A stretch of DNA of 59,582 bases, the filler included. It is 8 parts of 8 records of this genome, joined end to end, with 100 filler letters (N's around TTAATTAATTAA, not from the genome) between each part and the next. Parts side by side here need not be neighbours in the genome. Positions count along the whole stretch, not along the records: positions 34,097 to 39,720 come from SRR31147125_73210; 7 more parts are not named here. The stretch is one strand, 5' to 3'. Numbering within the stretch: position 1 is the first letter of the stretch; every line of letters starts with the position of its first letter. The notes beneath the pieces were generated by a model. That model did not search any database, was not told where the DNA came from, and worked only from the letters and a program-made list of their open reading frames with translations. The translations under genes were made by a program, and so were the position numbers. This document shows, piece by piece, positions 8,762-59,005 of the stretch.

Positions 8762-8861
8762 NNNNNNNNNNNNNNNNNNNNNNNNNNNNNNNNNNNNNNN
8801 NNNNNTTAATTAATTAANNNNNNNNNNNNNNNNNNNNNNNNNNNNNNNNNNNNNNNNNNNN
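8762..8861. other. Artificial contig spacer (also 13937-14036, 19534-19633, 33997-34096, 39721-39820, 46162-46261, 53398-53497)
   Basis: N44-TTAATTAATTAA-N44, with stops in all six frames. GC content and gene style change abruptly across each spacer. Confidence 0.98.
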
Positions 8862-11351: not shown

Positions 11352-11499
11352 AAGTTTCCTATTTACAACTTCTAATTTAACATCAGTTTTATTAATGCCT
11401 GTGCGGAAAAGGTGAATGTTGGTTCTCAGGCATGTAGGTAATTCTATGATTTAAAATCAAACGAGTTCTTTAAAATTATTAACCTATTAGAAAATTGTA

Positions 11500-13936: not shown

Positions 13937-14036
13937 NNNNNNNNNNNNNNNNNNNNNNNNNNNNNNNNNNNNNNNNNNNNTTAATTAATTAANNNNNNNN
14001 NNNNNNNNNNNNNNNNNNNNNNNNNNNNNNNNNNNN

Positions 14037-15411: not shown

Positions 15412-15649
15412 GGGACTATTCCAACCACCGTCCTATCCTCAATCATCGCAACTGCGTGTCAGGTACGAACTTAGCCCGCCTGTCCCGCATCTCAAAGTTT
15501 CCGAACCTTCCCAAATCAATTTCACTTATGAAATCAACGTTTTACAATTATTGTAATCTTCTGGGCGACGCACATTGGACACAGCCACAACCCGCTGCTA
15601 TAATTAGGCAATTCTTAAATTTATATCGTCATCACAGAAAGGGGGACCT

Positions 15650-17784: not shown

Positions 17785-17868
17785 GGGTCCTCCTGGGAAG
17801 ATGCTCCATAGCGTATTTTTGTTTCATCCTGAAGCTGGAATGATACACCTTGTGCACAAGAGAAGGAG

Positions 17869-19533: not shown

Positions 19534-19634
19534 NNNNNNNNNNNNNNNNNNNNNNNNNNNNNNNNNNNNNNNNNNNNTTAATTAATTAANNNNNNNNNNN
19601 NNNNNNNNNNNNNNNNNNNNNNNNNNNNNNNNNC

Positions 19635-21464: not shown

Positions 21465-24400
21465 TTAACCGATCCAGTCGTCTTCCGCTTCGATGGGTGC
21501 GAATCCCCTGCGCATCGTGTTCTCCGATACCAGTTTCGGATCCATGAACTGAAGCAGGTAGTCCGGTCCCCCTGCCTTGGAGCCGATTCCGGACATCTTG
21601 AACCCGCCGAACGGCTGCCGCTCAACCAGCGCGCCGGTCGATCCGCGGTTCAGGTAGAGATTGCCGACATTGAATGATTTTCTCGCTTGTTCCAGATGCG
21701 CCGGGCTTCTGGAGAAAACGGACCCGGTCAGGCCAAAGCGGGAAGCGTTGGCCCACTCGATCGCCTGGTCGAAATCCTTGACCTTCATCACCGCGAGCAC
21801 CGGTCCGAAGACTTCCTCTCGGGCTATCCGGTTGTCGGGACTAATGTTTCCGACGATAGTGAGCGGGGCGTAGTACCCGGTATCCGGGACATCGCGGCTG
21901 ATCAGCAGCTCGCCCTCCCGCTTGGCGATGTCGATGTATCTGACGACATTCTTGTAGGCCTGCGCATCGACGACGGGGCCCATGAAGTAGGCAGGATTAT
22001 CGGCCGGGCCGATCGCGATCGACCGGGCCGCCTCGACCAGACGGCTGACGAAGCGTTCGTATATCGGTTCCACCACGATGACGCGGGAGCAGGCCGAGCA
22101 TTTCTGCCCCTGGAAGGCGAAGGCGGAATAAATCACCTGCCCGACCGCCTCATCGAGGTCTGCGTCGTCGTCGATGATGATCCCGTTCTTCCCGCCAAGT
22201 TCGGGGATAACCTGCTTGATCTGGGCTTGACCGTCCTGCACCACCGAGGCTTTTTCAATGATGCGGTGGCCTACTTCCATCGACCCGGTAAACGCGATGA
22301 GCGAAATGTCTTTATGTTCCACCAGGTAATCGCCGATGACCGAGCCGCGTCCCGGCAGGTAGTTGAAAACGCCGTCAGGCAGTCCCGCTTCCTGAAAGAT
22401 CTCCAGGAGTGTGTGGCCGACGACCGATGCCGGCCCGGCGGGTTTGAACAGGACGGGGTTCCCGGCGACGATGGCAGCCGCTGACATCCCGCAGCTGATT
22501 GCCAGCGGGAAGTTCCACGGCGAGATGACCGCCGCGATGCCCTTGGCCTGATACGACAGCCGGTTGTCCTCACCCGGAGCCCGCCCCATGCGCCGGGGCG
22601 ACTCCAGCCGGATCATTTCGCGGCCGTAATATTCGAGGAAATCGATCGCCTCGGCCACATCGGCATAGGCCTGGTCCCACTGTTTTCCGACCTCGACGAT
22701 CTGCCAGGCGGACAGTTCGTAGATGCGTCGCCGCGCGATATCGGCAGCCTTGAACAGGTAGGCCGCACGCTCTGAACCGGTAAGCGCCCACCAGGAACCG
22801 GCCGCAGTCCTGGCCGCATCGAGGGCACGGTCCACCTCGACGGTTCCTGCCTGGCAGATGGTCCCTATTACCTGCATCGGCTCGGCCGGGTTTACCGATT
22901 CAAGGGTATCCTCCGTGATCACTTCGGTGCCTCCAATGGTCAGCGGGTAGGTTCTTCCCAATTGCTGTTTCACCGTTGCCAGTGCTGCTTCAAAATTCGA
23001 GCGTACGTCTGCTTTGGTGAAATCGGCCATCGCCTCGTTGACAAAGGGCAGTGGAGACGATGCCGCGCCACTGTCGGGGTGTTCTTTCTCTGTCTTCTCC
23101 CGTCCTTTCTCAATGGTTGCAAGTGGGTTTTCCACCAGTGCCTCGATATCCACTTCCTCGACAAATGTCTGGCGGAGAAACGACTCGTTGGCGGTGTTTT
23201 CGAGCAGGCGCCTGACCAGGTAGGCCATGCCGGGCAGAAGGTCGCCGTAGGGCGCGTACAACCGGACCCTCCTGGCGACGTTGAGCAGCCCCTTGCGCAC
23301 CGGTTCGGCCATACCGTAGAGTACCTGGAATTCGTAGCGTTCATCCGGTACATCGAGCTCCCGTGCGATTTCCAGCGCCGCCGCGACCGATCTGATATTG
23401 TGCGACCCGCAGGCGTATGAGCAGATATCATGGTTTTCCAGGATCTGCCTGGTGTGCCGCTCGAAGGCCGCGTCGCTTTCGGACTTGATCGTGTACACGG
23501 GAATGTCCCAGCCGTTCTGGCGGGCGATCACCGTTTCGTAGTCCCAGTACGCACCTTTTACCAGCCTGATGGAGATCGGCAGCCCCTGTGACCGCGACCA
23601 GTCAAGGAGCTCCTGCAGGTCCCGGTCGGTATCGAGGAGGTAGGACTGCAGGGCCAGGCGCAGGCCGGGATAGTCCCTGAATTCGTCATGGGAGCGCAGC
23701 CTGCGGTAGAGCTCAAGGGTGATATCCTTGTAGTGGTATGCCTCCATGTCGATGCACATGAACCCGTCGATCTCCCTTACCCGCCGGTACATCGGGATGA
23801 GGCGGGAGAGGATGCCTTTTACAGAACCCTCGAAATCCTTCGGGTCGGTCTGGGAAAAAGGGCCGACGGTTTCACCGATACGTTGACAAGCGGTGCATAC
23901 CCCCAGTCTCCGCCGTCCTTCCCGCCCAGTGACTCCCAGCTCGAACGGGCCTGCTCGAGGCTGTCGAAGAGCGCCATGTACTGGTTCATGTAGGATTCTG
24001 CTTCGACCTCGTTCACCGTCGCTTCTCCGAGGATGTCGACGGTGTAGGCAAAGCCGTCACGGCGCAGTTTCTGGATCGATTTAACAGCCTCTTTGCTGGT
24101 CTCGCCGATGATGAAGGAGCGGGCCATCTTTTCGATGTTGGAGCGGATAGTCCTGCCGAGGATGGCCCCGGTCAGACCGCCGCCGATACCGGCTCCCTTC
24201 GCACCCCATTTTAGAATCGACGGGATGTCCTCGGTGCCGCCCCCGAAATATTCTCGGATATGGCGGGTCAACGACGTTGACGTGTTCAGGTAGGGAAGCA
24301 CATCGACGAAGCGGAACATCTGCACTTTGAACTGTTCGTTCTGCATGCACCAGTCCATTACTTTTCCGGTCCAGAAATTCTTGTTGAACACAGAAGGTGC

Positions 24401-25075: not shown

Positions 25076-26782
25076 TCAGCCCTCAGGCAGTTCTCCGGTT
25101 GTCGGCACGAAGCGAAACAGAACAAAGCCGGTGTTGCGACCGATCTCGACCGGTTCCAGCCCCCGGTTCTGCATCCCTTCGAAATAGAAACTGGTAGTCA
25201 GTCCTGTGGTGATTTCCGGCCGCTCAAACAGGGCCGGCAGATCCTGTAGTTCCCGCTCATCATGTTCAATGGTTGTGAGACCTGAGACAAAGTTGACGCT
25301 CGGTCGGTCATCGATTTCATACATCACGATGATTCCGTTTGGTGGCGACAACGCTACCGCCTCCTCTGCGAGACTGGTCAGCGGGGCATCAATCAGTCGG
25401 TCGTAGAGCGGGATGACCAGGAAGAAGAGGGTGCAGCCGTTGATCAGCGAGCAGATCACCAGGGTTTCAAACAACCGTGCGGCGGATGCCCGTGCCGTAT
25501 GGACCAGCAGACCGGCGGAGAGCAGAAAGAGTGTTCCGGCAAGATACGGACTCCATCCGAGCTCTACCGGTTCGAACAATGCCGGAACCTTGTACGCGTC
25601 TTCTCCGATTAATTCGGCTAGAAAGGGGAAAACAAAGGGCAGTGTAAACAAAATGATACCCAGGAGGCCGGCAGGAACGGCGCCGGTCCAGCCGGCGAGT
25701 CTCCACCCGGCGGTGGTTCTCGTTCCGGTGGTTTCAGACGTTCCACGGTTTTCAAACAGATAGCCGATGAGCAGTGCGAAACCGGGGAGCGCCGGCAGGA
25801 TATAGTTCGGGAGTTTGGTGGCGGCGATCGAGAAGAAAAGGAACACGATGATTGAGAACAGGGAGAACAGCCGAAGATAGCGGTGGCCGGGCTGGCCGGT
25901 GTTTTTCAACGGGATGGTCAGGAGAGCGGCGGGAAGGTAGCCGAACCACGGCATGAAGCCGACGAAGAGGATGATCAGGTAGTAGAAAACCGATCCCGAG
26001 TGTCCCTCCATCGGGTTGGAGAATCGTCCCACATGATGGGTGACGAAGAGTTCTTTCATGAACTCGAAACCGTCAGGGTGCATGAATCCGAGCAGCAGGT
26101 ACCAGGAGAATCCGGTCAGGAGGATGAGTGCCGATCCCGGAAGAAACCAGCGGCGGTTGAAAATCACACCGGGTTTACCAATCGAGAGCAGATAGCAGAG
26201 GGCGGTCAGCAGCGGAAAGAATGCCCCGATCGCCCCCTTGGTAAGCATCGCGAGGGCCGCGCAGAGGCAACCGAGCCAGAACAGCGGCGCCCCGGATTTA
26301 TCGACGAGATAGCGTTCGACGCCGTACCACGAGCTGACCAGACAGCTGACGAAAAACAGGGTCAGCAGCATGTCGGTCATCGCGACCCGGGCGAGATAGA
26401 TGAATATGACCGAGGTGCCGAGCACCAGTGAACTGTTGAAGGCGACCCGGGATCCCAGCGGCCGCAGCGCGCCGAGATAGAACACCGTGATGGTCGCCAG
26501 GGCGGCCAGCGCGTTGAAGAACCGGGCACCCAGCGAGTTGACGCCGAATATCTGGTAGCCGAGCATCTGGGACCAGTAGAGCATCGGCGGCTTTTCGAAG
26601 AACCCCTCGCCGTTCAGCGTCGGCAGAACAGCCTCGCCAGCGACAAACATCGATCGTGAAACTTCGGCGTACACGCCTTCATCGTAGTCGATCACAACCG
26701 CGTTCGGCAGCGAGGTGAAAAAGAGCCCGGAGAACAGGATGAACAGGACCAGGGGAGAGACGACTGTGCTGAGCTTATGCAT
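25076..26782 (-). CDS. ArnT/PMT-family (GT-C) glycosyltransferase
   Basis: DEGVYAEVSRSM, FFEKPPMLYW, LTKG and TKLPNYILP. The likely start is MHKLS at 26782. Confidence 0.9.
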   Translation of the reverse strand: MHKLSTVVSPLVLFILFSGLFFTSLPNAVVIDYDEGVYAEVSRSMFVAGEAVLPTLNGEGFFEKPPMLYWSQMLGYQIFGVNSLGARFFNALAALATITVFYLGALRPLGSRVAFNSSLVLGTSVIFIYLARVAMTDMLLTLFFVSCLVSSWYGVERYLVDKSGAPLFWLGCLCAALAMLTKGAIGAFFPLLTALCYLLSIGKPGVIFNRRWFLPGSALILLTGFSWYLLLGFMHPDGFEFMKELFVTHHVGRFSNPMEGHSGSVFYYLIILFVGFMPWFGYLPAALLTIPLKNTGQPGHRYLRLFSLFSIIVFLFFSIAATKLPNYILPALPGFALLIGYLFENRGTSETTGTRTTAGWRLAGWTGAVPAGLLGIILFTLPFVFPFLAELIGEDAYKVPALFEPVELGWSPYLAGTLFLLSAGLLVHTARASAARLFETLVICSLINGCTLFFLVIPLYDRLIDAPLTSLAEEAVALSPPNGIIVMYEIDDRPSVNFVSGLTTIEHDERELQDLPALFERPEITTGLTTSFYFEGMQNRGLEPVEIGRNTGFVLFRFVPTTGELPEG

Positions 26783-26790
26783 GTATAGAC

Positions 26791-27558
26791 TCACTGATAG
26801 ATTGATTTTCGATAGTGCAGGTAGATACGCCCCAGCTCGATGGGGATTTTGGGGAGATAAGAGAGGGGGATCTTGGATTCCCCGACGTCTTCCCAGCGCT
26901 GCAGGGGCAACTCGTAAATGAGGCGGGCTGCTTCTTCGCGACCATACAGCTCTATAACCCGGGCGAACAGCTCGACGTCGAACAGCCAGGAAGACACGAA
27001 TGGTTCCGCAAACAGGTGGCCGGCCAGTTCCGCGTCTATCAGCTTTGCTCCACACTGGGTGTCGTGGATCGGCAGTTTGAGGATCATCGTGATCCCCAGT
27101 GCGACGATGCGCCCCGGGTAGTGGCGGTACCAGTAGCGCTTGATATTCGCTCCGAGACGCTGGATTCTCGACCCGAAGACCATTTTGTTGTGCGGGTCGG
27201 CGCTGTAATCGATGAACCGGTGAATCTCGGACAGGGGCGTGGCCAGGTCTCCGTCCCAATAACCGACGTGGGTCGGACTCTCACCGAGCGCCTCCTGCAC
27301 GCCCCGTCGGACCGCCTCCGCTTTGCCCCGGTTCCTGTCAAGGCTGAGGAGTGCTGCCCGCGGACCACTAAGGAAACATATCTCGTCCAGCATTTCTGTG
27401 GTACGGTCGGTAGAACCGTCATCGACGAAGAGAAAGGCGACCTCGGGTGTTCCCGCAAGAAACGACACGAATTGATCGGCCGCAAGTCTATGCGCTTCAT
27501 TATAACAGGGAATGACGATGGTGATCACAGGGGTCCTCTTGCTTTCCGGGGTGAACAC
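26791..27558 (-). CDS. GT2 polyprenol-phosphate glycosyltransferase (DPG-synthase-like)
   Basis: IVIPCYNE, VDDGSTD, NRGKAEAVRRG, DGDLATP, DTQCGAK, WLFDVE. Confidence 0.92.
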   Translation of the reverse strand: MFTPESKRTPVITIVIPCYNEAHRLAADQFVSFLAGTPEVAFLFVDDGSTDRTTEMLDEICFLSGPRAALLSLDRNRGKAEAVRRGVQEALGESPTHVGYWDGDLATPLSEIHRFIDYSADPHNKMVFGSRIQRLGANIKRYWYRHYPGRIVALGITMILKLPIHDTQCGAKLIDAELAGHLFAEPFVSSWLFDVELFARVIELYGREEAARLIYELPLQRWEDVGESKIPLSYLPKIPIELGRIYLHYRKSIYQ

Positions 27559-33847: not shown

Positions 33848-34124
33848 TGGTGGGAGATTGATTGTTTATCTCAAGTTAGTGGACAATCACGGTCGCCTCA
33901 CACAAAAGAATTTTTCTCTCATGGAGATCAATTTCCAACAAATCGCCTTCCATGCGTGGAGGAATCAGTTTCCATCCGAAAACGCAGCATTTTGTTNNNN
34001 NNNNNNNNNNNNNNNNNNNNNNNNNNNNNNNNNNNNNNNNTTAATTAATTAANNNNNNNNNNNNNNNNNNNNNNNNNNNNNNNNNNNNNNNNNNNNCCCC
34101 CTCACGTTCCCATGGTATATGCAG

Positions 34125-37100
34125 TGTTGGAACACTGGCAAACACATACGTCTTCCACTACGATGGGGATATGGCGCAACTTGCAGCAAACGAAGCTGCT
34201 CTGCAGAGTGATGCTTGTGTGGTACGTTGGGATCAGATTCGGCAAGGATCCTGTGGCCCATACACATTGCTAGATTGATGTGCGAAAGCAATTGGGACGT
34301 CTTCGCAACATTCGGTCCTTCCTTGACGCAGCAGTCCCACGAGAGGTTGTCCCACGGATTAAGATCCAGGATCCCGTCTTTTCCGATCAATGGCATCTAC
34401 GGAATATCGGACAGGTGAAGCCGGGATTCATAGGCAACGATATCAATGTGGTCCCTGCATGGGTAAGCACGCATTCTTCCTGGTAGAGGCGTGTGATCAA
34501 TATATACACAGGATAACGGGATAACGGGAGCTGGTGTCACAATTGGAGTCGTGGACACAAGGATTCCGAGTCATCCGGATCTAGATCCCACGTTTGTACT
34601 GCGTGTTCCTTGTAAGCGGTGAAACTGAGTGGTTGGGCTCTCCAGACACGATACCTCTCTCGACCTGAACCTACCCGTAGACGTCACCCTTCCCCCCATT
34701 GGGTCGGATGATATTGCTTCCCATGGAACGTCTGTTGGTGAGGAACACTAGCCCCCTTGGAGCGGGTGTATGCTCACTCTCACACAATCAATTGTCAGCG
34801 GGTGTGGCCGTTGCAGCTGGCAACACCATATGCGGACGAGGAGTCGCATTTGGATCCCAGTTTGCCGGTATGGTGGAGTGGCCTTGGGTTTCTCGTGGTG
34901 CTCATATTCTTGCAGCCATTGGACTCTTGTCAACCGATTTCCAGACGGACGTGGACGAAGCTATGGCACTAGGGCATAGCCTTGATGACATTCACGTCTT
35001 TGTGAACGGGTGGGTGACGGATGGATGGATGGATGGATCGCTTGTTTCATACCCCTTCCAGATGGGGTCCGACAGCTGCCGTTCTCGAGGGTCCCGATCT
35101 CCTGGCTCACAAACAGATCATGGAATCCGCTACCACGGGACGAGGTGGAAAAGGTTCCGTTTTTGTGTGGGCAGGCGGCAATGAATGGGCGAATCGAGAA
35201 GGTAGGCGTGTGCCGTGTGTGTGTGTGTGTATGTGGAAGGCTCCTTCGGCCCATTGTCAATTTCCAGACAACGTGAATCATGATGGATATGCCAATCGCC
35301 CCGAGGTCATTGCTGTCGCAGCTTCAGACTTTGCGGGAGTCCGTACGCCCTACAGCGAACCAGGGGCATGCATCCTGGTTACAGCACCAGGAGGAGGCGA
35401 GCAACCATACGAAAAGATTACAACCACGGGTCTAGGCACACCAGGAGGTAGGAGAGGGGACGAGGCCGTATCGTCGTCTTCCAGAACCCAATACCCCCTC
35501 GTAGTTTGTAGGTCCGACTTCATAGGAACGTCTGCTGCTGCAGCGAATGTAGCAGGTGTTGTGGCCCTCATGCTAGAAGCTAATGGCAACCTGGGATGGC
35601 GCGACGTCCAAAATGCTCTTATTCAAACGGCGCGCAAGATCGACGATGCACCTGCCGATGCGTTCAATCCAGAAGAATGGGTACAAAACGGCATTGGTGC
35701 GTGTACACCGTGCCCCGGTGAGGGACAATACGCTCATGACATGTGTGCAGGTCTTCCTATCCACCATTTCTATGGATTCGGACTCGTGGATGCTGAGAGT
35801 GCCGTCTCTCTGGTTTCGAATGCGTATGTTTTGCGGGCGGGTGGAGGAAGTGGCTCATTTCCTTGCAGCTACGAGAACCTCCCACCACGGCAAAGCTGGT
35901 GCATCACGGGGGCAGTCGCGACAGCTCCGGGTGTGGGACCGAATGGAGAACCCTCATGGTGTCCCGATCTGGATAGCTCAGGAGGTATTGCGCTTCCTGA
36001 CGCAACAGGCTCGGGCACCGGCCCCTTCACTCCCGGTGAACAAACGGTAACTGTGGCTCATACCGATTGGACACTGTACTGACTGTGTGTGGTGGTGGAT
36101 AGTTCACGGTGACCTCGAATATGATAGACTTTGTGATGGAACACGTGGAAGTACGCGTCAATATCGGACATGAACTTCGAGGCGATCTTCGCATTACACT
36201 CAAGAGTCCCAACGGAACAGAATCCATTCTCACCGATTTGCAGGTGTGTGTGGTATGATTTGTTGCTCGCCGTATCGTACTCATTGTACCCACCCAGGTG
36301 GAGGATGTGACCGATGAGGGATACAACAACTGGCAATTCATGACCGTTCGGAATTGGGGCGAATCACCGCTGGGTACATGGACGCTCAAGGTGCGAAATG
36401 CGGGGCAGGGTTGCCGTGTGCCATTTCCCCATTGCCTCGTAGGTCGAAGATCTTCTGCCCGGGTTCACAGGGACATTCTTTTCCTGGCAACTTCTGGTTC
36501 ACGGGCACGATGCCCCGGCGAAGACGTCCCTGGGTTCTGTAACAGGCTTGACGGTTCGTGAGACGTTTACAAGCGTAAGACCTGACGCGTACTCCCTTAG
36601 GCGGCTCCAAGGACCTCCAATCTTATTGAACTAACGTGGGACAACCAGGACATTAATCAGGAGGAGTGTGTCCACATCAAGGTGGCATGCCAAGCATGCG
36701 TCACCAAAGCGTGCACCAGCTTTTTGGGGGGCGGTGAAGAACTCGAAGTGCGTACAAAGCTTTGGAGTGTCGCGCGGTTTCTGATTCGTTCTATGTTAGT
36801 GTTCTTGTGACCGTGAAGAAATGGCTATGACAGACCTGTCTGAGGGGACAACGTACAAGTTTGTTGTGGTTGCCGACTATAAGGAGGGTATTGAATCCGA
36901 GCCAGCCGTTGCGGAAGCAACCACACGTATGGATCGTGTTTCACATACCTCTCTCTCTCTCTCTCTCTCTGACCTGTACGCTCATTAGCGGTGTGTTCCA
37001 ATGGATGCAATGGCGCTGGAATCTGTGTCGACAATGAGCTGTGTGCCTGCACAGTTGCAGGCTGGAGCGGAAATCTTTGTGATGAAGGTAACTTGTACAC

Positions 37101-38889
37101 CCCGTTTCTGTATCTCACTCATGTCATGGTGACGTTCTCCAGTGGACTGTGTTGTTATGGATGACCTGGACGCTTCGAGCGTCGTCATTTATCCGGGTGT
37201 TGATACGCTTCCCTTCTCTTTGAACGACAACTGGCTGCGCCTGAACGATAAGGGGCCGTGCGTGCTTTTCCCTCCCCCTTCTTCCTTCTTCCTTTTTTGT
37301 TTTGTTCATTCTCGTTTGACGAATGGTTTGTACCACCAGAGATGTGCAAGGAACGACAAGCCTCCATGATAAGGGCATGAAGACGTTGGAGAAGACTGTG
37401 ACGTTCTTGGCCCCTGCAAACGCCAACTGGGATTACCAAGTGTCTCTTCGATGGACGGGCAACCGCGGTCGTCCCGATAATGTCCCCGTACGGGTGAAAG
37501 ATTCCCAAGGCGCCATTCTCTTGGATGGTGAGTACTTGGACCGTGTACACACATACACCTTATCCCGCGAGGCAGAACGTGTCAATCAACAAGTTGCTGT
37601 GGAGGATGGATGGCACGTTCTGGGAGATCAGCTCTACTACTTCTCGGGTGGTGGATCCATTGTCGTATCCAATCTCAATACTCGTGGCCTTGTTGCAGCG
37701 GACGCAGCTAGGATCTGTCCCTTCAATCCCGGTGGTACGCTCGTTTGTATTTGTATTGTTGTATTGAGGGCCACTCACACACGACCAGGCCAAGCGTTTC
37801 CGTTTGGACTGGTGGTACCGGGCGAGTCCTGTCTCAACGTCTATTATCAACATCAGGGCGACAGTAACCCCGGTGCAATTATCTTGAACGGGGCACCCTT
37901 CAGCAATGGGCAAGTGGAATTCACAACGGAGGTGCGTTGCATGTCACTTGTTGCTGGGGGGTGGGGCCTGATCCCTTGCACACAGTTCAACTGGCTGTAC
38001 AAGGACTCCTTCCCATCTCCGGATCATCAAAGCATGATCATCTTTGGGACAGGCGACAAACGCAGCACCAAGACCTATGAGTGCGTAGGGAGGCGCGTGT
38101 GTCCAACATGGGTCGTTTGTAACTTCCCCCACGCAGTCCGGCCAGTGGATGGAGAATTTCCATTGAGAACACCTCCAAGGGATGGCGTCCCGTCGTGCGC
38201 TACCATACGAGGCAATGTGGTTGGGTGCGTAGTCTCCCCAGGAACCCCAGAAGAGAAATGACGTTGCATGGTAGACGTATTTCCTGGGGCGTTCCCGCTG
38301 GGTGTGTAAGGGACTGCCGAGGATTTTCGTTCACGAAGTGGGGGACTCGCTTCAGCCGAACACCTGGTGAGTGTTGACTTGTATTCGATGTGAAGTGGTG
38401 GTGGTGACCGGGGATGGTGGAAAGGTATCACATGGCAGCTACATATATACGCGATGCGATTCCCAGTGCTTCCCCGGGTACCTTCTGTCTCTGGGTTAAC
38501 GGCCAAAAGGCGTGCCGCGATGACCCACTCACCTATCTCTACGTCGACTCCCGTTCGGCGTTTGGATTCTTTGGGTGTAGGAACTGCCTTCTCACTGATC
38601 TGCGGTGGGTTTCGTGAGTGCTGGACTTCCTATTCGTGTGTGTGATTTGTCTTTTCCCTCTGGCAGAATCTGGAAGAGTGTTCGAACGGATGCTGAGATT
38701 GCCGATGCCATGAATCGGCGACTTGTCGAGAGTCACAAGTTCCCGACACTTCTGGCTTATCTGAAACTCAACCAAGCGCCTGTGGAGGGAAGACGCGGAT
38801 ACACAATCCAAGACGAGAAAAATCGAAACACGGGTACTATTTTCGGAAATGTGCCGGATGTCATCTTCCCCCAGACGCTTTGTGGATAG
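34125..38889 (+). CDS. Eukaryotic multi-exon kexin/furin-like (S8B) protease: prodomain-S8-P-FN3-EGF-golvesin-like-LamG (5' truncated)
   Basis: 25 GT-AG introns: 34222-34273, 34463-34511, 34592-34645, 34738-34798, 34868-34915, 35010-35061, 35202-35267, 35448-35504, 35697-35750, 35824-35868, 36047-36102, 36244-36297, 36391-36442, 36554-36600, 36748-36799, 36927-36988, 37088-37142, 37258-37339, 37528-37575, 37735-37788, 37932-37985, 38081-38136, 38225-38274, 38367-38424, 38605-38666. Removing them leaves one open frame of about 1127 aa with QWHL, VVD, HGTSVAG, VFVWAGGN, GTSAAA, LGWRDVQ, YGFGLVDA, EHVEV..H..RGDL...SPNGT and WGESPLGTWTL. Confidence 0.88.
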
Positions 38890-38948
38890 GGATGTGTGGG
38901 TATTGAGTGGGTGGATGGGTGGGTGATGGAAATGAAAAGACATTTCTT

Positions 38949-39710
38949 CTATGCTTTGCGTTCAGCATCGGCAAGATGGGCCTCCATGGCCTTGAACCTG
39001 GCTTCAAGTTCCACTAAACGGTCTTCTTGGAGATGACAGCGTTCCTTTCCAGAATTGAAGAAGAGTCAGCTCAGCTGGCTTGGTGGTGATGCCTCCCAGA
39101 TCGACACACCTTCCACACATTCCTATCTGCGGTCGTTGCATTGAGTTGCTCCAGGAAACGTGAACACATGTGGGACACGAATTGTTTCTCCAGTTTCGCC
39201 TTCTCTTCCTGAAGCATCCGTTGCCTCTCTCCATCGGTTTCAAAGAGAGCTGCCCATTCAGTCAATTCTCGCACAAGAGCTGCATTCTCCTCATCATATC
39301 CTGCTATGCCACACAGATGAGTGAGGGACGGGCCTTGCAGAGCCACGGCACACCTGAAAGGACGCCTACGTGACAAAGTCCTAGATCGACGTTGGTCACA
39401 AACTTCCCCGTAAGGGCCTCCGTGTGTGTCGGTAGCAATGTACCCTGGGAGAGGTTCGGTCTCAGATGAGCCTGAGAAAAACGAACCTGAAGGAGGTCCC
39501 ACTCGTCGATGCTGTTGAGAGAGGATCTCAAGGCACATGCCGCCGTGCCCCATATGTATCTGCATATCGTCCCTGTGAATTCGAGGATCCGAAGAACAGA
39601 AACGCACAGATTGCCCGTCTTGGTTACGGCTGCCGAGCCATCTCCGTGCGCAACTACCTTTGTGACCTTGATTCCCACGTGAGTGGTGGTACAAGGAATC
39701 CAACCAACAA
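38949..39710 (-). CDS. Eukaryotic multi-exon RCC1-repeat protein with C-terminal coiled coil (3' part only)
   Basis: Spliced reading gives KVTKVVAHGDGSAAVTKTGNL/YIWG and PTHTEALTGKFVTNVDLGLCHVGVLS, then a helical tail ...ELEARFKAMEAHLADAERKA*. At least 4 short GT-AG introns; exact boundaries are less certain. Confidence 0.65.
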
Positions 39711-39820
39711 CTGGTGGTGGNNNNNNNNNNNNNNNNNNNNNNNNNNNNNNNNNNNNNNNNNNNNTTAATTAATTAANNNNNNNNNNNNNNNNNNNNNNNN
39801 NNNNNNNNNNNNNNNNNNNN

Positions 39821-42491
39821 CCTGGTTACTTGGCTGAGACAGGTTGATATATTCATCACCACCCAAATCTAATACTTTATTGCGGTTAGCAGATACAGTA
39901 AGCGTTGTTTCCCAACTAAAATCGGGTTTCGAAATATTTACAGAGGTTAAAGCTAACTCCATACCTTTATTTTCGATAGAGCCAACATTTTGCAATTGCG
40001 TACCACCTGCAGTTCCCGGTAAATCGCGGGCCAACAACAGGTCTTCGGTAGTTTTCTTATATACATCGGCTTCAAAACTAAAACGGTTGTTTAAGAAACC
40101 AACTTCAAGGCCCAGGTCCCATTGTTTTGTTGTTTCCCAGGTAAGGTCGCTACTTGGCAGCCCACCAATTAAAACACCCGACACCAAGGTTTCGTTAAAA
40201 TACGTTTGCGTATTGCTAAATTTTGCCAACGAATTATAAGGGCTCACACCTTGCTCTCCAACAATACCATAACTACCACGTAGTTTTAATAATGATATCG
40301 CATCAACATTTTCCATAAAGCTTTCTTTATCGGCGTTCCATGCCAAACCAACCGATGGGAAAAATGCGTATTTATTACCTTCTTCGAAAACAGACGAACC
40401 ATCGCGGCGACCAACCAGAGTTAACAAGTATTTACCTTGGTAGCTGTAATTAATACGACCTAAGAATGAAGCAAAAGTACGTTGAGAATAACCCGATCCA
40501 ACCTGATTCAATAACGGATCGGAACCGAAAGACAAGTTATTAAATTCTAATACATCGTTCGGAAAACCTTCGGCCTGTGAATATGCCGATTCGTTTGAAA
40601 TATGCTGCCAGGTAAAACCACCCAATACTTTTAACGAATGATCGCCAAATTCTTTCGAATAATTTAAAGTGTTCTCATTCAAAATACTTTGTGAATTATT
40701 GGTACTTACTTTAGCCCAACCACCTACACCTTGTGCATTTCTCTCGGGAAGAACACCTGGTAAATATTGGTTGTTTTTCCAGTTATTCAACTCTACCCCC
40801 ATTGTTGAGCGGAATACCAAATCCTTTATTGGAGTAAATTCAACATAGGCATTTGTTACCATATTGGTAACCAAATCATGATTGGTACGCAACTGTATAT
40901 CGGCTTCGGGGTTACGTTGTAACGAACCACTAACCGGGTTGGTTGACGTAAAGTTGCCATCTTCGTCGTACACTTCGCGAATTGGAACAACGGAAGTAAC
41001 CATTTGGCTGTAATTAACTTTATTGTTTTCTTTCTTAAATTTCGAAACATTCAGGCGTAAACCTGCTTTAAACATTTTCGAAAGGTTAAAATCGATATTA
41101 TTACGCAATGTAAAACGTTCAATACCCGAAGCTCTTACAATACCTTGGTCGAAATGGTTAAATGAAATATAATAATTGGCCTTATCACTATTTCCAGAAA
41201 CCGAAACATCGGTATTATTAATCATCGCATCTTGCGAAACTAAATCAATCCAGTCGGTGTAAGGCGCCGAAGCAGGATCTTCGAATATTACTGGTAAACT
41301 TTCGTCGGTATAACCAAAACCGTCTGGTCCCGGAACAAACTGAGCTTCTTCGTTACGGTATTCGGCATATAATTCAGAGTCGGCCAATTTAATTCGGTTA
41401 GCCGTTTTTTGTAAACTAAAATACTGGTTCACACTCACCTGCATTTTTCCTTTTGCCAAACCTTTACCGCTTTTCGAGGTAATAAGAACAACACCGGCAG
41501 CTCCACGAGTACCATAAATAGCCAATGCAGTTGCATCTTTTAAAACTTCAATGGACTCAATATCGTTAACGTTCAGGTTGTTCAGGTTGAAATCGGTTCC
41601 GGCAATAAAACCATCTACAACGTATAGCGGATTGTTATTACCATTAATTGAACTCGTACCCCTAATTCGAACAACCGAACCACTACCCGGTGCACCACTG
41701 GTTGAAGTAACTTCAACACCGGCAGCACGACCTTGCAAAGCCTGATCTACACGTACGGTTGGTTGGTTTTCTAAAACTTCGGCTTTAACCTGCGATACAG
41801 AAGAAACCAAATCTTCTTTTTTCGACACACCGTAACCAATGGCAACCACCTCTTCAATACCAATGTAATCCTGTTTCATTGTAACATTAATCACAGCTTG
41901 GCCTGCAATGTCAATTTCCTGCTGGAGCATTCCAACAAACGAAAAAACTAGAGTTGTTACTCCTTCTTCAATATCTAAAGTATAGTTACCATCTATATCG
42001 GAAATGGTTCCTTGTGTTGTACCCTTAAAAATAATGGTTACACCCGGCAAAGGCTCTCCATTATTATCGGTAATTTTTCCACTTACTCTTTTTTGCTGAC
42101 TACCAACCGATGTAGAATTAGATTCACCTGCAGAAAGTACAATCTGCCTTTCTACAATAGTATACTCAACATCCGTTCCTTCAAACAGTACATCCAGAAC
42201 TTCGTCAATCTTCTTGTCTTTAATCTTTACATCTACTTTCCGTTCAACATCAACAATTTTACTGTTGTAAAGAAAGTAGAACTCCGAGTCGTCTTCAATT
42301 TGTGAAAGTACCTCACGTACAGAAGAATTTTTAAATTCAAGATTTAATTTTGTTGACTGCGAATAGCTATCAACAGCAAAACCCTGAATTACAGCTACTA
42401 GCAACACATACAATGTTAGCCTCATACATAAAAAAGTTTTAGAAGCCCAAAGCCTTTTAAGCCCAGGCCCATTCATACCAAAATTTTTCAT
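39821..42491 (-). CDS. SusC/RagA TonB-dependent receptor with N-terminal STN domain (3' truncated)
   Basis: STN region, GEPLPGVTI, EEVVAIGYG, PLYVVDG, DIESIEVLKDATALAIYGTRGAAGVVLITSK, LTWETT. Confidence 0.95.
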
Positions 42492-42531
42492 AAGTTTACT
42501 TCGCTTTTTAATTAATAATTTTTATTAGTTG

Positions 42532-46161: not shown

Positions 46162-46506
46162 NNNNNNNNNNNNNNNNNNNNNNNNNNNNNNNNNNNNNNN
46201 NNNNNTTAATTAATTAANNNNNNNNNNNNNNNNNNNNNNNNNNNNNNNNNNNNNNNNNNNNACATGTCTACCTTGATTTGGTAGATGGGCCCGTAAAAAT
46301 TTGTTATAGGGTAATGAAATTGAAGAAGTCTGGGTTAGCGCATCACCAGGCTGAAAGCCCGTTTCATCAACATATAACAGGCGGTAATGCATTCGATCTG
46401 TTTCCGTTTATGATCGCAGGAAGATCATGCAACGGTTGACAAGTGCCCTATTTTGAGGAATTAGGTTACAAATCTGAATCCGTCGATCCTCAAACACCGG
46501 GAATGA

Positions 46507-48153: not shown

Positions 48154-48516
48154 CGGCGAGCTCCTTCTCTTCGATGTTTAAGAAAAATGAATTGAAATTA
48201 AGCGTTGCCCATTTTTTAACGGCTTTTCGGTGTCCGGATCAGGTTCCAATAAGGTTTCGGACCTATAGCTTCTTTTACACTCCCTTTGGTTAACTGTCTA
48301 CCCCCGGCAATGCTATCCGCACTGAATTTGGCACAATCACCCGGCTTCTCTACGCCTCGATTGATCATGATAGAGAGAACCTTTCCTTGATTGTTTCTCA
48401 GGAGTAGGTTTAAACTCCTTCTCAGCCGACATCTCGTCAGCGATTCAACACCAAACGTTCAATTCGCTGCAGCGGCGAGCCATCATGTCCACTCCTCCAA
48501 CAGAAAGGTGAAGTTA

Positions 48517-50217
48517 ATGACTTTTCAGAACCAACGCTATTGTGACCGCCTAAAGGGCGGCATCGGCCGCCGGGCGCTTTTCAAATGCATGGGGGCCACG
48601 GATGACGATCTGGACAACCGGCCCATGATCGGCATCGCCAACGCCTGGAACGAGCTGGTCCCCGGCCATGTCAACCTGCGCCAGATCGCCGAACATGTAC
48701 GCAAGGGGATATTTCAGGCCGGGGGCACAGTGGCCGAGTTCGGTGTCATCGGCGCTTGCGACGGCCTCTCCAACGGGCACGCGGGCATGTACTATTCCCT
48801 GCCATCGCGCGATATGATTGCCGGCAGCATCGAAATCATGGTCTCATCGCACCGTCTCGACGGTTTGGTCATGATCGGTTCGTGCGACAAGATCGTACCG
48901 GGGATGATGATGGCCGCGGCCCGACTCGATATTCCGGCCGTTATCGCCGTGGGTGGTCCGATGTTGGGCGGGGTGGTCTTTGATAATCGCAAATCTGATC
49001 TCACATCCCTGTCGGAGGGTTTTGCCATGTACCGCAGCGGCAAAATCAGCCAGGAGGAGCTCTACCGGCTGGAGGATCTTGTCACCCCCACCTGCGGTTC
49101 CTGTTCCTTCTACGGCACCGCCAACACGATGTGTTGCCTCTCAGAGGCGATCGGACTGTCGCTGCCCGGTTCGGCGACCATACCGGCCGTCTATGCCGAA
49201 CGCCTGCGGGCCTCGGTTGCGGCCGGCAAGGCGATCGTCGAGTTGACGCTGCAGGGCACCTCTGCGCGCGATATCATCACTCTGGCGTCGTTGCGGAACG
49301 CAGCACGGGTGCTGATGGCCACCGGCGGTTCGACCAACGGTGTGTTGCATCTGATCGCCGTCGCCGTCGAGCTGGGCATCGAGGCGGAGACGATGATGGG
49401 GATTCTCGAAGAAGCGAGCGAAAAGACGCCGCACGTTGCCAAGATCAACCCGGCTTCGGAATATGACATGGAGGATCTCTATCGTTCCGGCGGCATCCCC
49501 CAGGTGATGAAAGAGATCAGTTCACTTCTGGATATGAACTGTCGAACGGTCACTGGCAAAACGGTGGCTGAGAACCTCGAAGCCCACGCCTCTCCCTTTA
49601 AACCCGACCGCAAGGTGGTCAAAACGATGGCCGATCCATTCGACAGCTCCAAAGGGCTGGCCGTGCTGCGAGGCAACCTGGCGCCCAATACGGCCATCAC
49701 CAAACCGGCCGCCATCGATCCCACCATCATGACCTTCACCGGCACCGCCAAAACCTTCGACTGCGAGGAAGATGCCGGCCGGGCCGTACTGGACGGCAAG
49801 ATCGTCGCCGGCGATGTGGTGGTGATACGCTACGAGGGGCCTAAAGGCGGGCCGGGCATGCGCGAAATGGCCAAAGTGATGAAATTTATGTACGGTGTCG
49901 GCTTGGCCAAAACGGCGGCTCTGGTCACCGACGGCCGCTTTTCCGGAACGAACAACGGTTGCTTTGTGGGCCATGTTTCACCCGAGGCGTCCGCGGGCGG
50001 CCCTATCGCCATTGTACGGGACGGAGACAAGATCACCATCGATATCCCCAACAGCACGCTGACGCTGCATCTGACCGAAGAAGAGATTGCAGAGCGACTC
50101 GAAGCCTGGCAGGCACCGTCGCCGAAACACACTACCGGCTTTTTAAGCATTTACGAACACCTTGCCGAATCGGCCGACAAGGGGGCGGTGATGCGGATCG
50201 GTAAAAGGCGCAAATAG
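48517..50217 (+). CDS. ilvD: Dihydroxy-acid dehydratase (IlvD/Edd family)
   Basis: IGIANAWNELVPGH, CDG, CDKIVPG, GTANTM, GGSTN, YEGPKGGPGMRE, TDGRFSG, GHVSPEA. Confidence 0.9.
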   Translation: MTFQNQRYCDRLKGGIGRRALFKCMGATDDDLDNRPMIGIANAWNELVPGHVNLRQIAEHVRKGIFQAGGTVAEFGVIGACDGLSNGHAGMYYSLPSRDMIAGSIEIMVSSHRLDGLVMIGSCDKIVPGMMMAAARLDIPAVIAVGGPMLGGVVFDNRKSDLTSLSEGFAMYRSGKISQEELYRLEDLVTPTCGSCSFYGTANTMCCLSEAIGLSLPGSATIPAVYAERLRASVAAGKAIVELTLQGTSARDIITLASLRNAARVLMATGGSTNGVLHLIAVAVELGIEAETMMGILEEASEKTPHVAKINPASEYDMEDLYRSGGIPQVMKEISSLLDMNCRTVTGKTVAENLEAHASPFKPDRKVVKTMADPFDSSKGLAVLRGNLAPNTAITKPAAIDPTIMTFTGTAKTFDCEEDAGRAVLDGKIVAGDVVVIRYEGPKGGPGMREMAKVMKFMYGVGLAKTAALVTDGRFSGTNNGCFVGHVSPEASAGGPIAIVRDGDKITIDIPNSTLTLHLTEEEIAERLEAWQAPSPKHTTGFLSIYEHLAESADKGAVMRIGKRRK

Positions 50218-50610
50218 AAACAGCTTTATTGTTGCTTGAGATACTTCAAAATCTCTTCGTCCTTAAACATTTCGATGGCTCTGTTCAATGTCGCCGCACT
50301 CAGTGAAAAATGGCGTTCATAAAGATGGAAAAAGTAAAAGATATAAGAGAGACGTTCATATGATGGTCGCCGATACACCGGTGAATCTGCGTTTGACCAC
50401 TGTGAACATTTTCGCTATCTTATGCTGTATTACCCCCTTCGTGGGCGTGCGGTCCCAATACTTGACTAACCAAATATTCACGCCATAACCAGCAATGCCA
50501 TTGTGGATACTGGGGGAAAGAGGGACGATGGCTCACGATAAACCTGTGGCGGCATGCTGGAAACGTGCAATTCTTAATATACACAAGCGTTTAACTCAGT
50601 GGGAGGCCAA

Positions 50611-52752
50611 ATGGCCACATTCACCATAGCAAACGAACCCCGTTTCACCTTTCAAATCGCCGACACTGAATTGATGGTGGCCGATCTGAACATTCGCGAG
50701 CAGATATCGAGCCCGTTCGAGGCACTATTGAACCTTGCGTCCGAAGATGAGATCCAATTCGACGAAGCAGTCGGAAAAACGGCCCTGTTGACACTGGAAA
50801 GCGGCAATGCGGACCGTTATGTCCACGGGGTAGTCGACCGGTTTATCCAAAACGGGATGGATGGCCGATTCTATCTGTATCAGGCCAGGATGGTGCCACA
50901 GATCGAGCTGCTCTCGCTTGAACAGGATTGCCGTATTTTTCAGGACAAAGCGATACCGGACATTGTCAAGGAGGTCTTGTCCGAGAGCGGTGTGACCTCC
51001 GACATGCTGGACCAGCGGCTCCAGGGCACCTATGCGTCGCGCGAATATTGCGTTCAGTACCGTGAAACTGATTTGGATTTTATCTCCCGCCTGTTGGAAG
51101 AGGAAGGGATTTTCTACTTTTTCGAGCACAGCCGGGAAAAGCATGTCATGGTGCTTGGAGACGGTACAGTCAACTATCAGCCCATCAGCGGCTCGGCGCA
51201 AGTCATTTTCAATGCCGGTGGCGCCATGGTGTCTGAAGAAGAATCCGTGGTGGCCTTCCACCTGTCGAAACAGATTCGCCCCGGAAAATACACGGTGCAG
51301 GATTTCAATTTCAAAAGCCCGTCCCTGGAGTTGACCGCCGACAACACGGACAGTGAAAACAAAAAGCTGGAAATTTACGACTACGCCGCCGGGCATCAGA
51401 CCCCGGAGGCCGGGAAGACCATTGCCAAGGTGCGTCTGCAACAGGCGATGATGAACAAGGAGCGGGCAGAGGGGCGCAGTGTCGTACCCCGGTTCATTCC
51501 CGGTTTTACTTTTACGTTGAGCGACCATCCGATGGACGCTTTCAATCAGGAGTATTTATTGGTCGGCATGGTCCATAACGGCGCACAACCCCAAGTGCTG
51601 GCGGAAAAGGCGACGTCGGACAGGGGCACCAGCTATGACAACACGTTTATGGCCGTCCCTTCGGCCGTGACCGTCAGACCCGAAAGAACGGTCAACAAAC
51701 CGTTGGTCGAGGGCGTCCAAACCGCCATTGTCACCGGGCCGTCCGGCGAGGAGATCTATACGGACGAACACGGCCGCGTCAAAGTCCGGTTTCACTGGGA
51801 TCGCTTGGGTGGGAAAGACGAAAAGAGCTCCTGCTGGATCCGGGTCAGCCAGTCCTGGGCCGGGGCCGGCTGGGGGGCCATGCACATCCCCCGTATCGGC
51901 CAGGAGGTGATCGTCGATTTCATCGAAGGCGACCCCGACCGGCCGATCATTACCGGCCGCGTCTATCACGGCACCAACACACCACCCTATGCGTTGCCGG
52001 AAGAAAAGACCAAAAGCACCATCAAGTCCGACTCCAGCAAGGGCGGTGGCGGTTCCAATGAATTCAGGTTCGAGGATAAAAAGGGCAGCGAAGAGATATT
52101 CATCCACGGCCGGAAAGACTGGACCATTGCCATCGAGAATGACAAAAACCAGTCCGTCGGAAATAATGAAACCCTTCAGGTGGCCAGCAATCGCACCAAG
52201 AGTGTCGGCGCGGACCAGAGCGAAACCATCGGCAGCAACAAGACCATCCAGGTCGGGGCCAACCATACCGAGAGCATCGGCAGCAATATGACCGTAACCG
52301 TTGCCGCCAACAAAAGTGAAACCGTCGGGGTCAACTCCGCCGAGACCATCGGTGCGGCCAAAGCGTTGACGATCGGCGCTGCGTATCAAGTCACCGTCGG
52401 GGCTGCGATGAATGAAACCGTAGGTGCCGCAAAAGCGGAGGAGATCGGTGCCCATAAATCGGTGGCCGTGGGCGGTAATGCGTCCGAAGCCATTGCGGGC
52501 AGCCGCTCTCTTTCCATGGGAAAAGATTCGGATATCAATATCGGCGGCAAGCAGATCGAGAAAGTGGGCAAGGAACACTCTTTAGATGCCAAGAAGATTC
52601 AGTTTACGGCCAGGGATCAGATTACGCTCAAGACCGGAAAGGCTGAAATCATCATGAAGAAAAATGGTGACATCACCATAAAAGGTAAAAAAATCAGTGT
52701 TAAAGGAAGTGGCGATGTGATCATTAAAGGTAGCAAAATCAAGGAGAACTGA
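50611..52752 (+). CDS. vgrG: Type VI secretion spike protein VgrG with Gp5-like C-terminal beta-helix repeats
   Basis: REYCVQYRETDLDFISRLLEEEGI, QTAIVTGP..EEIYTDEHGRVKV.FHWDR, PRIGQEVIVDF.EGDPDRP; RBS GGAGG before ATG 50611. Confidence 0.95.
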   Translation: MATFTIANEPRFTFQIADTELMVADLNIREQISSPFEALLNLASEDEIQFDEAVGKTALLTLESGNADRYVHGVVDRFIQNGMDGRFYLYQARMVPQIELLSLEQDCRIFQDKAIPDIVKEVLSESGVTSDMLDQRLQGTYASREYCVQYRETDLDFISRLLEEEGIFYFFEHSREKHVMVLGDGTVNYQPISGSAQVIFNAGGAMVSEEESVVAFHLSKQIRPGKYTVQDFNFKSPSLELTADNTDSENKKLEIYDYAAGHQTPEAGKTIAKVRLQQAMMNKERAEGRSVVPRFIPGFTFTLSDHPMDAFNQEYLLVGMVHNGAQPQVLAEKATSDRGTSYDNTFMAVPSAVTVRPERTVNKPLVEGVQTAIVTGPSGEEIYTDEHGRVKVRFHWDRLGGKDEKSSCWIRVSQSWAGAGWGAMHIPRIGQEVIVDFIEGDPDRPIITGRVYHGTNTPPYALPEEKTKSTIKSDSSKGGGGSNEFRFEDKKGSEEIFIHGRKDWTIAIENDKNQSVGNNETLQVASNRTKSVGADQSETIGSNKTIQVGANHTESIGSNMTVTVAANKSETVGVNSAETIGAAKALTIGAAYQVTVGAAMNETVGAAKAEEIGAHKSVAVGGNASEAIAGSRSLSMGKDSDINIGGKQIEKVGKEHSLDAKKIQFTARDQITLKTGKAEIIMKKNGDITIKGKKISVKGSGDVIIKGSKIKEN

Positions 52753-53397: not shown

Positions 53398-53498
53398 NNN
53401 NNNNNNNNNNNNNNNNNNNNNNNNNNNNNNNNNNNNNNNNNTTAATTAATTAANNNNNNNNNNNNNNNNNNNNNNNNNNNNNNNNNNNNNNNNNNNNA

Positions 53499-58928: not shown

Positions 58929-59005
58929 CTTTTATAACTTGTAAGAGCGGTCCAAATTTGATACTTAGCAAAAAATTTCAAAACCTCTAACACATTGAAG
59001 ATATT

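Follow-up and report, generated by a model that had tools for sequence, protein, structure and literature searches.

What kind of protein is encoded at positions 34125..38889 (plus strand) of the window, the whole 59,582-nucleotide (nt) stretch of joined contigs analysed here, where the plus-strand frames, read from stop to stop, yield short open pieces with subtilase motifs that switch frame? An initial annotation of this segment described a hidden eukaryotic gene for a proprotein convertase, with many introns and an unusual tail. We find that the segment is a real, intron-rich, spliced gene of a microbial eukaryote, located on a contig of 5624 nt and 53% G+C (34097-39720). It encodes a kexin-type core, a peptidase S8 domain followed by a P domain, to which a tail of FN3-like, EGF-like, Golvesin_C and LamG-like units is joined. 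The product is probably a soluble, glycan-tethered protease of the secretory pathway, in which a kexin-type core with altered specificity is combined with a lectin-type tail.

The gene model was obtained by dynamic programming, hand curation and homology, and was then corrected by the joints of a spliced contig from a public run. The coding region in the window comprises 26 exons and 25 GT-AG introns; the introns add up to 1380 nt, and the 3385 exonic nt read in one frame, as 1127 codons and a single terminal stop, the TAG at 38887-38889. These figures are identical to those of the initial annotation. The introns are 45-82 nt long and all 25 have GT..AG ends:

34222-34273, 34463-34511, 34592-34645, 34738-34798, 34868-34915, 35010-35061, 35202-35267 (plus strand): introns 1 to 7
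35448-35504, 35697-35750, 35824-35868, 36047-36102, 36244-36297, 36391-36442 (plus strand): introns 8 to 13
36554-36600, 36748-36799, 36927-36988, 37088-37142, 37258-37339, 37528-37575 (plus strand): introns 14 to 19
37735-37788, 37932-37985, 38081-38136, 38225-38274, 38367-38424, 38605-38666 (plus strand): introns 20 to 25

Simple repeats of GGAT-, GT- and CT-type (35006-35050, 35205-35242, 36939-36979) lie within introns 6, 7 and 16.

The splicing of this gene is documented by two public runs of one study, X1 and X2, which derive from the same sample and whose kind is given for both only as a guess, DNA. Run X1 contains a 3807-nt contig of depth 122 that corresponds to the spliced form, ends 10 nt beyond the stop, and aligns to the window with 23 GT..AG joints, three places at simple repeats having been skipped. 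The 15 of these joints that are listed all coincide with introns of the model. Furthermore, the record coordinates of all eight listed X1 pieces match the running totals of exon length in the corrected model exactly; this fixes the summed intron lengths between the pieces and rules out an optional in-frame intron, 38302-38355, that dynamic programming had chosen. Run X2 contains unspliced DNA pieces, such as one covering 36011-36450 and spanning three introns. The simplest reading is that the intron-less X1 contig derives from complementary DNA. Intron 3 is set by an X1 joint at 34592-34645, with the weak donor GTTTGT. This joint ruled out both a GT-AG intron at 34612-34680, whose canonical-looking GTAAGC donor lies 20 nt downstream, and a GC-AG intron at 34601-34645, which homology had favoured in 48 of 60 comparisons, and the case is a caution on splice models made from sequence alone.

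A bacterial gene carrying frameshifts, or a chimeric assembly, could in principle give the appearance of introns, and such an artefact would suit a contig that was found among bacterial contigs, three of whose domains have bacterial nearest relatives, and which carries a golvesin/xanthan-lyase carbohydrate-binding module (CBM) listed for a single eukaryotic protein in the accessible part of the supplement to PMC9166713. The properties of the removed segments are at odds with this explanation. Besides their uniform GT..AG ends and narrow range of lengths, they are enriched for a branch-site motif, CTNAY, located 12-26 nt before the acceptor in 13 of 25 introns as against 276 of 2536 exon windows (11%), a count that used an earlier donor, and the same acceptor, for intron 3. 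A stop-free path requires at least 15 introns in the real sequence and 22 in its reverse complement; 32 of 40 dinucleotide shuffles have no stop-free path at all, and the other eight need 24-31 introns. Where an in-frame intron was read through, all 10 aligned homologues have a gap at exactly that place, and the residues concerned receive an AlphaFold2 (AF2) predicted local distance difference test score (pLDDT) below 50. Finally, an independent contig lacks exactly these segments, and DNA contigs of the same sample retain them. The artefact is thus close to refuted, and we assign it almost no weight against a spliced eukaryotic gene.

The initial annotation let the gene span begin at 34125; this position stands as a coordinate of the coding region and fails as the start of the gene, since it is the first position of an exon behind an acceptor. 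Two features define the 5' end of the gene within the window:

34097..34124 (plus strand): 3' end of an additional upstream intron, with acceptor AG at 34123-34124, where the X1 match stops (34123)
34126..34363 (plus strand): C-terminal portion of the prodomain, with the linker that leads to the mature enzyme, from blastp to bacterial homologues

Upstream of 34123 the X1 contig runs on with unlike letters for about 410 more spliced nt, judged from record coordinates. Taken with the acceptor, this extension implies that the window misses one or more further introns and as many as about 136 codons. Any signal peptide would fall in that 5' part, and the extracellular location that the initial annotation proposed is therefore only putative. 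An exact 40-mer from the 5' end of the contig had no match in metagenome contigs. By blastp, residue 1 of the spliced model aligns to residues 75-80 of bacterial homologues carrying the S8 prodomain family, and the last 62 residues of prodomain and linker are present in the window; Peptidase_S8_N matches the prodomain region weakly (14.4 bits, E 0.054).

The catalytic core follows the prodomain:

34527..35869 (plus strand): Peptidase S8 catalytic domain, from Pfam, furin and kexin matches, and bacterial homologues
34554-34556, 34722-34724, 35180-35182, 35531-35533 (plus strand): catalytic tetrad, in order Asp, His, oxyanion Asn and Ser
36103..36505 (plus strand): P (proprotein-convertase) domain in three exons, from Pfam P_proprotein and homologue alignment

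Pfam Peptidase_S8 scores 67.2 bits on the read-through open reading frame (ORF) 35018-36079. P_proprotein matches two separate exons at 41.2 bits (profile positions 2-34) and 35.6 bits (33-73), against a cut-off of 21, and the third exon carries on the alignment to homologues. The S8 and P domains adjoin, a combination that serves as the working definition of kexin-like convertases in the accessible text of bioRxiv 10.1101/802215. Among solved structures the catalytic part is matched best by furin (70.5 bits) and kexin (57.2 bits). The same query scores higher, up to 126 bits, with bacterial-type multidomain S8-P proteins, which are the best of 481 database matches. The spliced model aligns to such bacterial proteins with 39-40% identity over about 580 residues (E 3e-97 to about 1e-92), and the named relatives come from metagenome-assembled genomes of Chloroflexi, Verrucomicrobiota, Planctomycetota-like and cyanobacterial origin. 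In its catalytic part the protein is thus closer to these bacterial proteins than to Kex2 and furin, with which the initial annotation had compared it. A search of the PDB with ORF 34629-34748 returned no match at E up to 10, and of 42 pattern matches from a genome scan with the S8 ORF none was confirmed, intron read-through having supplied several of the patterns.

Is this core an active protease? Homologue columns were read from an alignment of 114 of the 120 listed homologues, the six left out having matches that do not span the core. Three substitutions near the active site would suit a pseudo-protease, a non-catalytic adhesion or lectin protein that uses the subtilase domain as a scaffold: the Gly after the oxyanion Asn is Glu (Gly in 112 of 114), the Pro after GTSxxx is Ala (Pro in 111 of 114), and the Gly before GTS is Ile (Gly in 102 of 114). 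The presence of four binding modules behind the catalytic part would also be in keeping with such a role. Against it, each of the four catalytic residues stands in its motif and in a column that is invariant among the 114 homologues, and both the prodomain and the P domain are retained. A loss of catalysis is thus very improbable; judged from these motifs, the enzyme looks active, with pockets unlike those of a dibasic-specific convertase.

Two positions of the substrate pocket, located by motif columns among the 114 homologues, are central to its specificity:

34557-34559 (plus strand): Thr at the position of furin Asp154
35075-35077 (plus strand): Ala at the position of furin Asp258

The DDG that is the signature of subfamily S8B reads DTR at the catalytic Asp of this protein, Thr standing for an Asp found in 103 of 114 homologues and Arg for a Gly found in 110. 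The exon with this motif finds DTG-type subtilisins as its best PDB matches. Around WGP, the preceding Ser (114 of 114 homologues) is Gly and the Asp two residues after it (110 of 114) is Ala; likewise, the Asp two residues before the catalytic His (101 of 114) is Ala. In Table 1 of PMC2820236, as far as that source was accessible, the P1 contacts of furin include Ser253, Glu257 and Asp258, and its P2 contacts Asp154 and Asp191. When the WGP stretch is aligned with furin, the positions of Ser253, Glu257 and Asp258 are occupied by Gly, Thr and Ala, and Thr stands at that of Asp154, so that the acidic S1/S2 pocket of furin (Asp258, Asp306, Asp154, Asp191) is not reproduced as a whole here. From the changes of Asp258 to Ala, Asp154 to Thr and DDG to DTR a relaxed or shifted specificity is therefore expected, in which at least the requirement for a basic residue at P2 would be lost.

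These substitutions bear directly on the possibility that the protein is a classical proprotein convertase, which would cut precursors behind basic motifs while in the Golgi or in secretory vesicles, with a lectin-type tail that, instead of a membrane anchor, would keep it in the lumen or sort it there. It fits the S8-plus-P definition of bioRxiv 10.1101/802215 in its accessible text, has furin and kexin as its best solved matches, and retains both an Asp at the Asp306 position and an acid at the Asp264 position; moreover golvesin, the namesake of one tail module, serves in the accessible part of its source as a Dictyostelium marker for Golgi as well as post-Golgi vesicles. A candidate autoprocessing site at the expected prodomain cut, placed by eye against the cleavage sites of homologues, reads R-L-R-N-I-R, that is R-x-R-x-x-R with Ile at P2. 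However, no Lys/Arg-Arg pair occurs close to where cleavage is expected, the sole dibasic pair of the first 110 residues lying further upstream, and the candidate site may instead fit a lost P2 requirement under which P1 and P4 might still take Arg. The replacements at DDG, Asp258, Glu257, Ser253 and Asp154 affect residues that furin and the bacterial relatives keep, and the catalytic part is most closely related to multidomain secreted proteins of bacteria, not to eukaryotic convertases. A classical convertase is thus unlikely, and the label of proprotein convertase given to the gene by the initial annotation becomes doubtful.

The tail was analysed by comparing the joined spliced protein with self-built profiles (local hidden Markov models, HMMs, and hhalign), and by running Pfam on exons and read-through ORFs. 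All sequence motifs quoted in the initial annotation are found in the spliced translation, and the order it gave for the units after the S8 and P domains is upheld by the profile comparisons:

36607..36925 (plus strand): FN3-like unit with a Cys-rich middle, two exons, from Pfam fn3 and hhalign
36994..37086 (plus strand): EGF-like unit with six Cys, single exon, from Pfam EGF_2 and Cys spacing
37148..37724 (plus strand): Golvesin_C module of the xanthan-lyase C-terminal type, a CBM-like beta sandwich, three exons
37890..38703 (plus strand): LamG_3-like (concanavalin A-like) jelly roll, six exons, from hhalign, with a preceding strand from near 37734
38725..38886 (plus strand): C-terminal 54 residues, without family or hydrophobic span, from Pfam, Atlas and hydropathy

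An exhaustive search of 1.84 billion representatives returned 41 matches, all to the Golvesin_C part; 40 of these 41 nearest relatives carry Golvesin_C (127-580 bits) and none carries Peptidase_S8. Single-domain alignments to these relatives span all three exons, and a local HMM of 82 Golvesin_C segments scores 77.2 bits on the spliced module. Pfam Golvesin_C (PF25275) itself gives 26.9 bits (E 5.7e-6), below its cut-off of 31.6, on the read-through ORF 37320-38258, a query that misses the first module exon and includes 16 residues of intron read-through. With its nearest relatives in the family and their fold shared, the module is assigned to Golvesin_C. In the relatives it adjoins GH16, pectate-lyase-like, GHL10 plus amidase and GDSL lipase domains and M6, M8, M10 and M12 peptidases. 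CBM84, a xanthan-binding module of a GH9 xanthanase, is in no source found equated with the C-terminal domain of PDB 6F2P and was not used.

The LamG-like region was recognised by profile-profile comparison. Aligned by hhalign to 33 Laminin_G_3 (PF13385) domains, all above the Pfam cut-off and taken from five Verrucomicrobia genomes and one actinomycete record, the last 276 residues give a probability of 95.2%, E 2.7e-8 and a score of 52.8 over 136 columns (template positions 11-158 of 158), a similarity to the whole-domain profile. None of 127 shuffles reached this score (maximum 26.6), the reversed sequence scored 12.9 and other parts of the protein at most 15.3; with an earlier version of the alignment the score was 45.3, and 185 shuffles reached at most 18.6. 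Atlas leads for this region were Laminin_G_3 and pentaxin clusters (0.85-0.88), and HMMER with a LamG_3 profile matched the core motif only (11-13 bits). LamG_3 units are concanavalin-A-like lectin folds. Several direct searches in the tail were negative: Pfam on the single LamG exons, among which the domain is split over six exons and three frames, had no match at E up to 1; the exhaustive search of 1.84 billion representatives gave no relatives of the region; and a word-index search for longer proteins retained 0 of 3615 candidates with ORF 37320-38258 and found no candidate with exon 38426-38602. The same exon had 0 matches in the PDB at E up to 10; tblastn of it against plasmids gave only noise, 10 records of unrelated annotation at E 1-9. 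A metagenome scan with the C-terminal ORF yielded 62 pattern matches, none confirmed, and the LamG and FN3/EGF regions, compared by phmmer with 161 retrieved proteins, gave nothing below E 0.03.

The two units that precede the Golvesin_C module score below the Pfam cut-offs. Pfam fn3 matches the second exon of the FN3-like unit only, at 17.9 bits (E 0.0035), under the 25-bit cut-off; hhalign, comparing the spliced region with 25 PF00041 domains, covers the whole template with a probability of 42.6%, E 2.6e-4 and a score of 26.3, which 0 of 191 shuffles reached (maximum 16.4). These profile scores lend moderate support to the FN3 assignment. Six Cys in the middle of this unit (36670-36810, spanning the exon junction) are unusual for FN3 and may form a disulfide-rich insert. 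The EGF-like unit has the Cys spacing C-x3-C-x5-C-x6-C-x-C-x8-C and scores 21.5 bits with EGF_2 (E 3e-4), just under the cut-off of 22.1, and 16.4 bits with EGF.

The protein ends in 54 residues that have no Pfam match. In Atlas, 28 of 30 matches to the last exon are clusters lacking a family assignment, and Laminin_G_3 comes no higher than rank 29 (score 0.83). A circular permutation, in which the last 55 residues would supply the strand that precedes the LamG_3 unit, was rejected, hhalign against 29 upstream-extended domains giving a probability of 0.7%. The highest 19-residue hydropathy of the protein, 1.81, corresponds to the buried helix after the catalytic Ser within the S8 core, which confirms the absence of a C-terminal transmembrane segment noted in the initial annotation. 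Several animal convertases (PC1/3, PC2, PACE4, PC5A) also have no membrane anchor, and the missing anchor alone is therefore not unusual.

How might such a protein work? The enzyme would enter the secretory pathway, where its prodomain would assist folding and then be removed. The two lectin-type modules could hold the soluble protease on glycan-rich material, candidate anchors being a cell wall, a matrix, a prey surface or luminal glycoconjugates, with the FN3-like unit as a possible spacer in the string of binding modules; cleavage would follow a relaxed or shifted specificity and not the classical dibasic processing of prohormones. According to the accessible text of PMC9166713, the CBM domains of the Bacteroides lectins Cbeg4 and Cbeg5 share an InterPro family with golvesin and a xanthan lyase, and in isolation they bind glycans with Gal-beta1-3GlcNAc-beta1-2Man-alpha1-3Man, an N-glycan motif. 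This binding, together with the occurrence of the same modules beside bacterial secreted glycosidases and metalloproteases, is why we read the tail as a putative glycan-tethering device, serving a soluble protease that would act in the secretory pathway or outside the cell.

Several points weigh against this interpretation. Glycan binding by the Golvesin_C and LamG modules is, for this protein, a prediction only, and the equation of Pfam Golvesin_C with InterPro IPR033803 is drawn from their shared founding proteins. The FN3-like and EGF-like units lie below Pfam cut-offs, and the N-terminus with its signal-peptide region falls outside the window. Run X1 is not on record as RNA and its intron-less contig could be a processed DNA copy, which would likewise show the removal of these segments by splicing. 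In the pocket, the Asp at the Asp306 position and the acid at the Asp264 position are retained, and with R-x-R-x-x-R at the prodomain site Arg may still be preferred at P1 and P4.

The initial annotation did not recognise this architecture, and the samples that we could compare, limited as they are, agree. None of the 120 nearest S8-P relatives has a Golvesin_C-like or LamG_3-like module and none of the 41 Golvesin_C relatives has an S8-P core; the combination is also absent from the IPR033803 list as far as the supplement was accessible. In the open full-text literature, IPR033803 identifiers occur in PMC9166713 only, and no paper in the open literature links the name of the golvesin/xanthan-lyase CBM with subtilisin. 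Long module tails are common in the bacterial S8-P proteins among the database matches, and kexin-like genes are known from protists: according to the accessible text of 10.1101/802215, Capsaspora has one, Monosiga two and Acanthamoeba three. It is possible, although we regard it as somewhat doubtful, that the S8-P core, perhaps with Golvesin_C and LamG_3, module types that are rare outside bacteria and characteristic of their secreted enzymes, entered a eukaryote from bacteria by horizontal transfer, gained at least 26 introns and a eukaryote-type EGF unit, and had its pocket re-tooled. Such a transfer would have given rise to a glycan-anchored extracellular protease with non-convertase specificity.

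Kexin-like proteases are usually viewed as dibasic processing enzymes of the eukaryotic secretory pathway. The present gene joins the kexin scaffold of S8 and P domains to two lectin-type modules that otherwise stand beside bacterial glycosidases and metalloproteases, and its catalytic core is nearer to bacterial relatives than to furin and has lost furin specificity acids. If our inferences are right, a protist has put the kexin scaffold to new use as a glycan-tethered protease, and the gene would be a datable case of dense intron gain, at about seven introns per kilobase of coding sequence, in a gene of bacterial type. It would also extend the barely studied golvesin/xanthan-lyase CBM to a second eukaryotic setting, as the second kind of eukaryotic protein to carry this module by the accessible part of the 2022 supplementary list of PMC9166713.

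The surroundings of the gene are of two kinds. On its own contig, a convergent gene lies beyond the protease stop:

38949..39720 (minus strand): 3' part of the convergent neighbouring gene, from frame translations, with candidate stop at 38949-38951

This candidate stop lies 59 nt from that of the protease gene, and the short intergenic gap points to a compact genome. The end of the neighbouring protein has a coiled-coil-like look, with a faint CCD97-like_C match only (E 0.098). The neighbour is not part of the protease gene, and its presence shows that the latter ends at 38889. The rest of the window consists of seven further contigs; all eight are unrelated, range in G+C from 0.36 to 0.59, and are joined by linkers of the form N44-TTAATTAATTAA-N44, so that adjacency across a linker carries no meaning:

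8762-8861, 13937-14036, 19534-19633, 33997-34096, 39721-39820, 46162-46261, 53398-53497: linkers

On five of the seven other contigs, Pfam identifies the large ORFs as ordinary bacterial proteins:

1305-3713 (minus strand): polysaccharide export protein, SLBB/Poly_export
15608-16924 (plus strand): hybrid histidine kinase
17833-19533 (plus strand): GH3-family enzyme
21468-24056 (minus strand): PutA-like protein, Pro_dh and Aldedh
25079-27280 (minus strand): PMT-family glycosyltransferase
39824-42521 (minus strand): TonB-dependent receptor
48391-50214 (plus strand): dihydroxy-acid dehydratase
50578-52749 (plus strand): VgrG-like spike, Phage_GPD/Gp5

On the remaining two contigs, ORFs 11491-13936 (plus strand, 815 residues) and 57471-58931 (minus strand, 487 residues) match no Pfam family at E 1e-5, and no Rfam family was found in the whole window. 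Amid these bacterial contigs, the one with the protease gene is therefore a stray of eukaryotic origin, and multi-exon eukaryotic genes can sit unnoticed on contigs that are binned with bacteria.

Four groups of known proteins resemble parts of this one. With furin and Kex2 (MEROPS S8B) it shares the order of prodomain, S8 and P domains, the same catalytic tetrad, Asp306 and the acid at the Asp264 position; it differs from them in having DTR for DDG, in the replacement of Ser253, Glu257, Asp258 and Asp154, and in possessing neither a Cys-rich or Ser/Thr-rich region nor a membrane anchor, its tail being composed instead of FN3, EGF, Golvesin_C and LamG_3 units. The idea of a soluble convertase that its C-terminal repeats hold on extracellular glycoconjugates has a parallel in the animal enzymes PACE4 and PC5/6; their tails consist of Cys-rich repeats and not of CBM or LamG modules, and their acidic pockets are kept. 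The closest relatives of the prodomain-S8-P core are the bacterial proteins of the 'subtilisin-like proprotein convertase family' (for instance P0053, P0010, P0004 and P0002), which resemble it in their long C-terminal strings of beta-sandwich modules, including FN3 in 6 of 120 relatives. Unlike the present gene they have no introns, keep DDG and the Asp after WGP, and by local HMMs have a Golvesin_C-like or LamG_3-like module in none of the 120; going by the accession numbers, no EGF family occurs among the precomputed Pfam accessions of these relatives. The Golvesin_C module, for its part, is known from golvesin of Dictyostelium, from the C-terminal domain of the Paenibacillus nanensis xanthan lyase PXL (PDB 6F2P), and from Cbeg4 and Cbeg5. 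In the accessible part of the IPR033803 list in the supplement to PMC9166713, golvesin is the sole eukaryotic entry, Peptidase S8 occurs only in the bacterial protein E1VIQ4, and P and EGF domains occur in none. In the protein described here, by contrast, the module follows a kexin-type protease.

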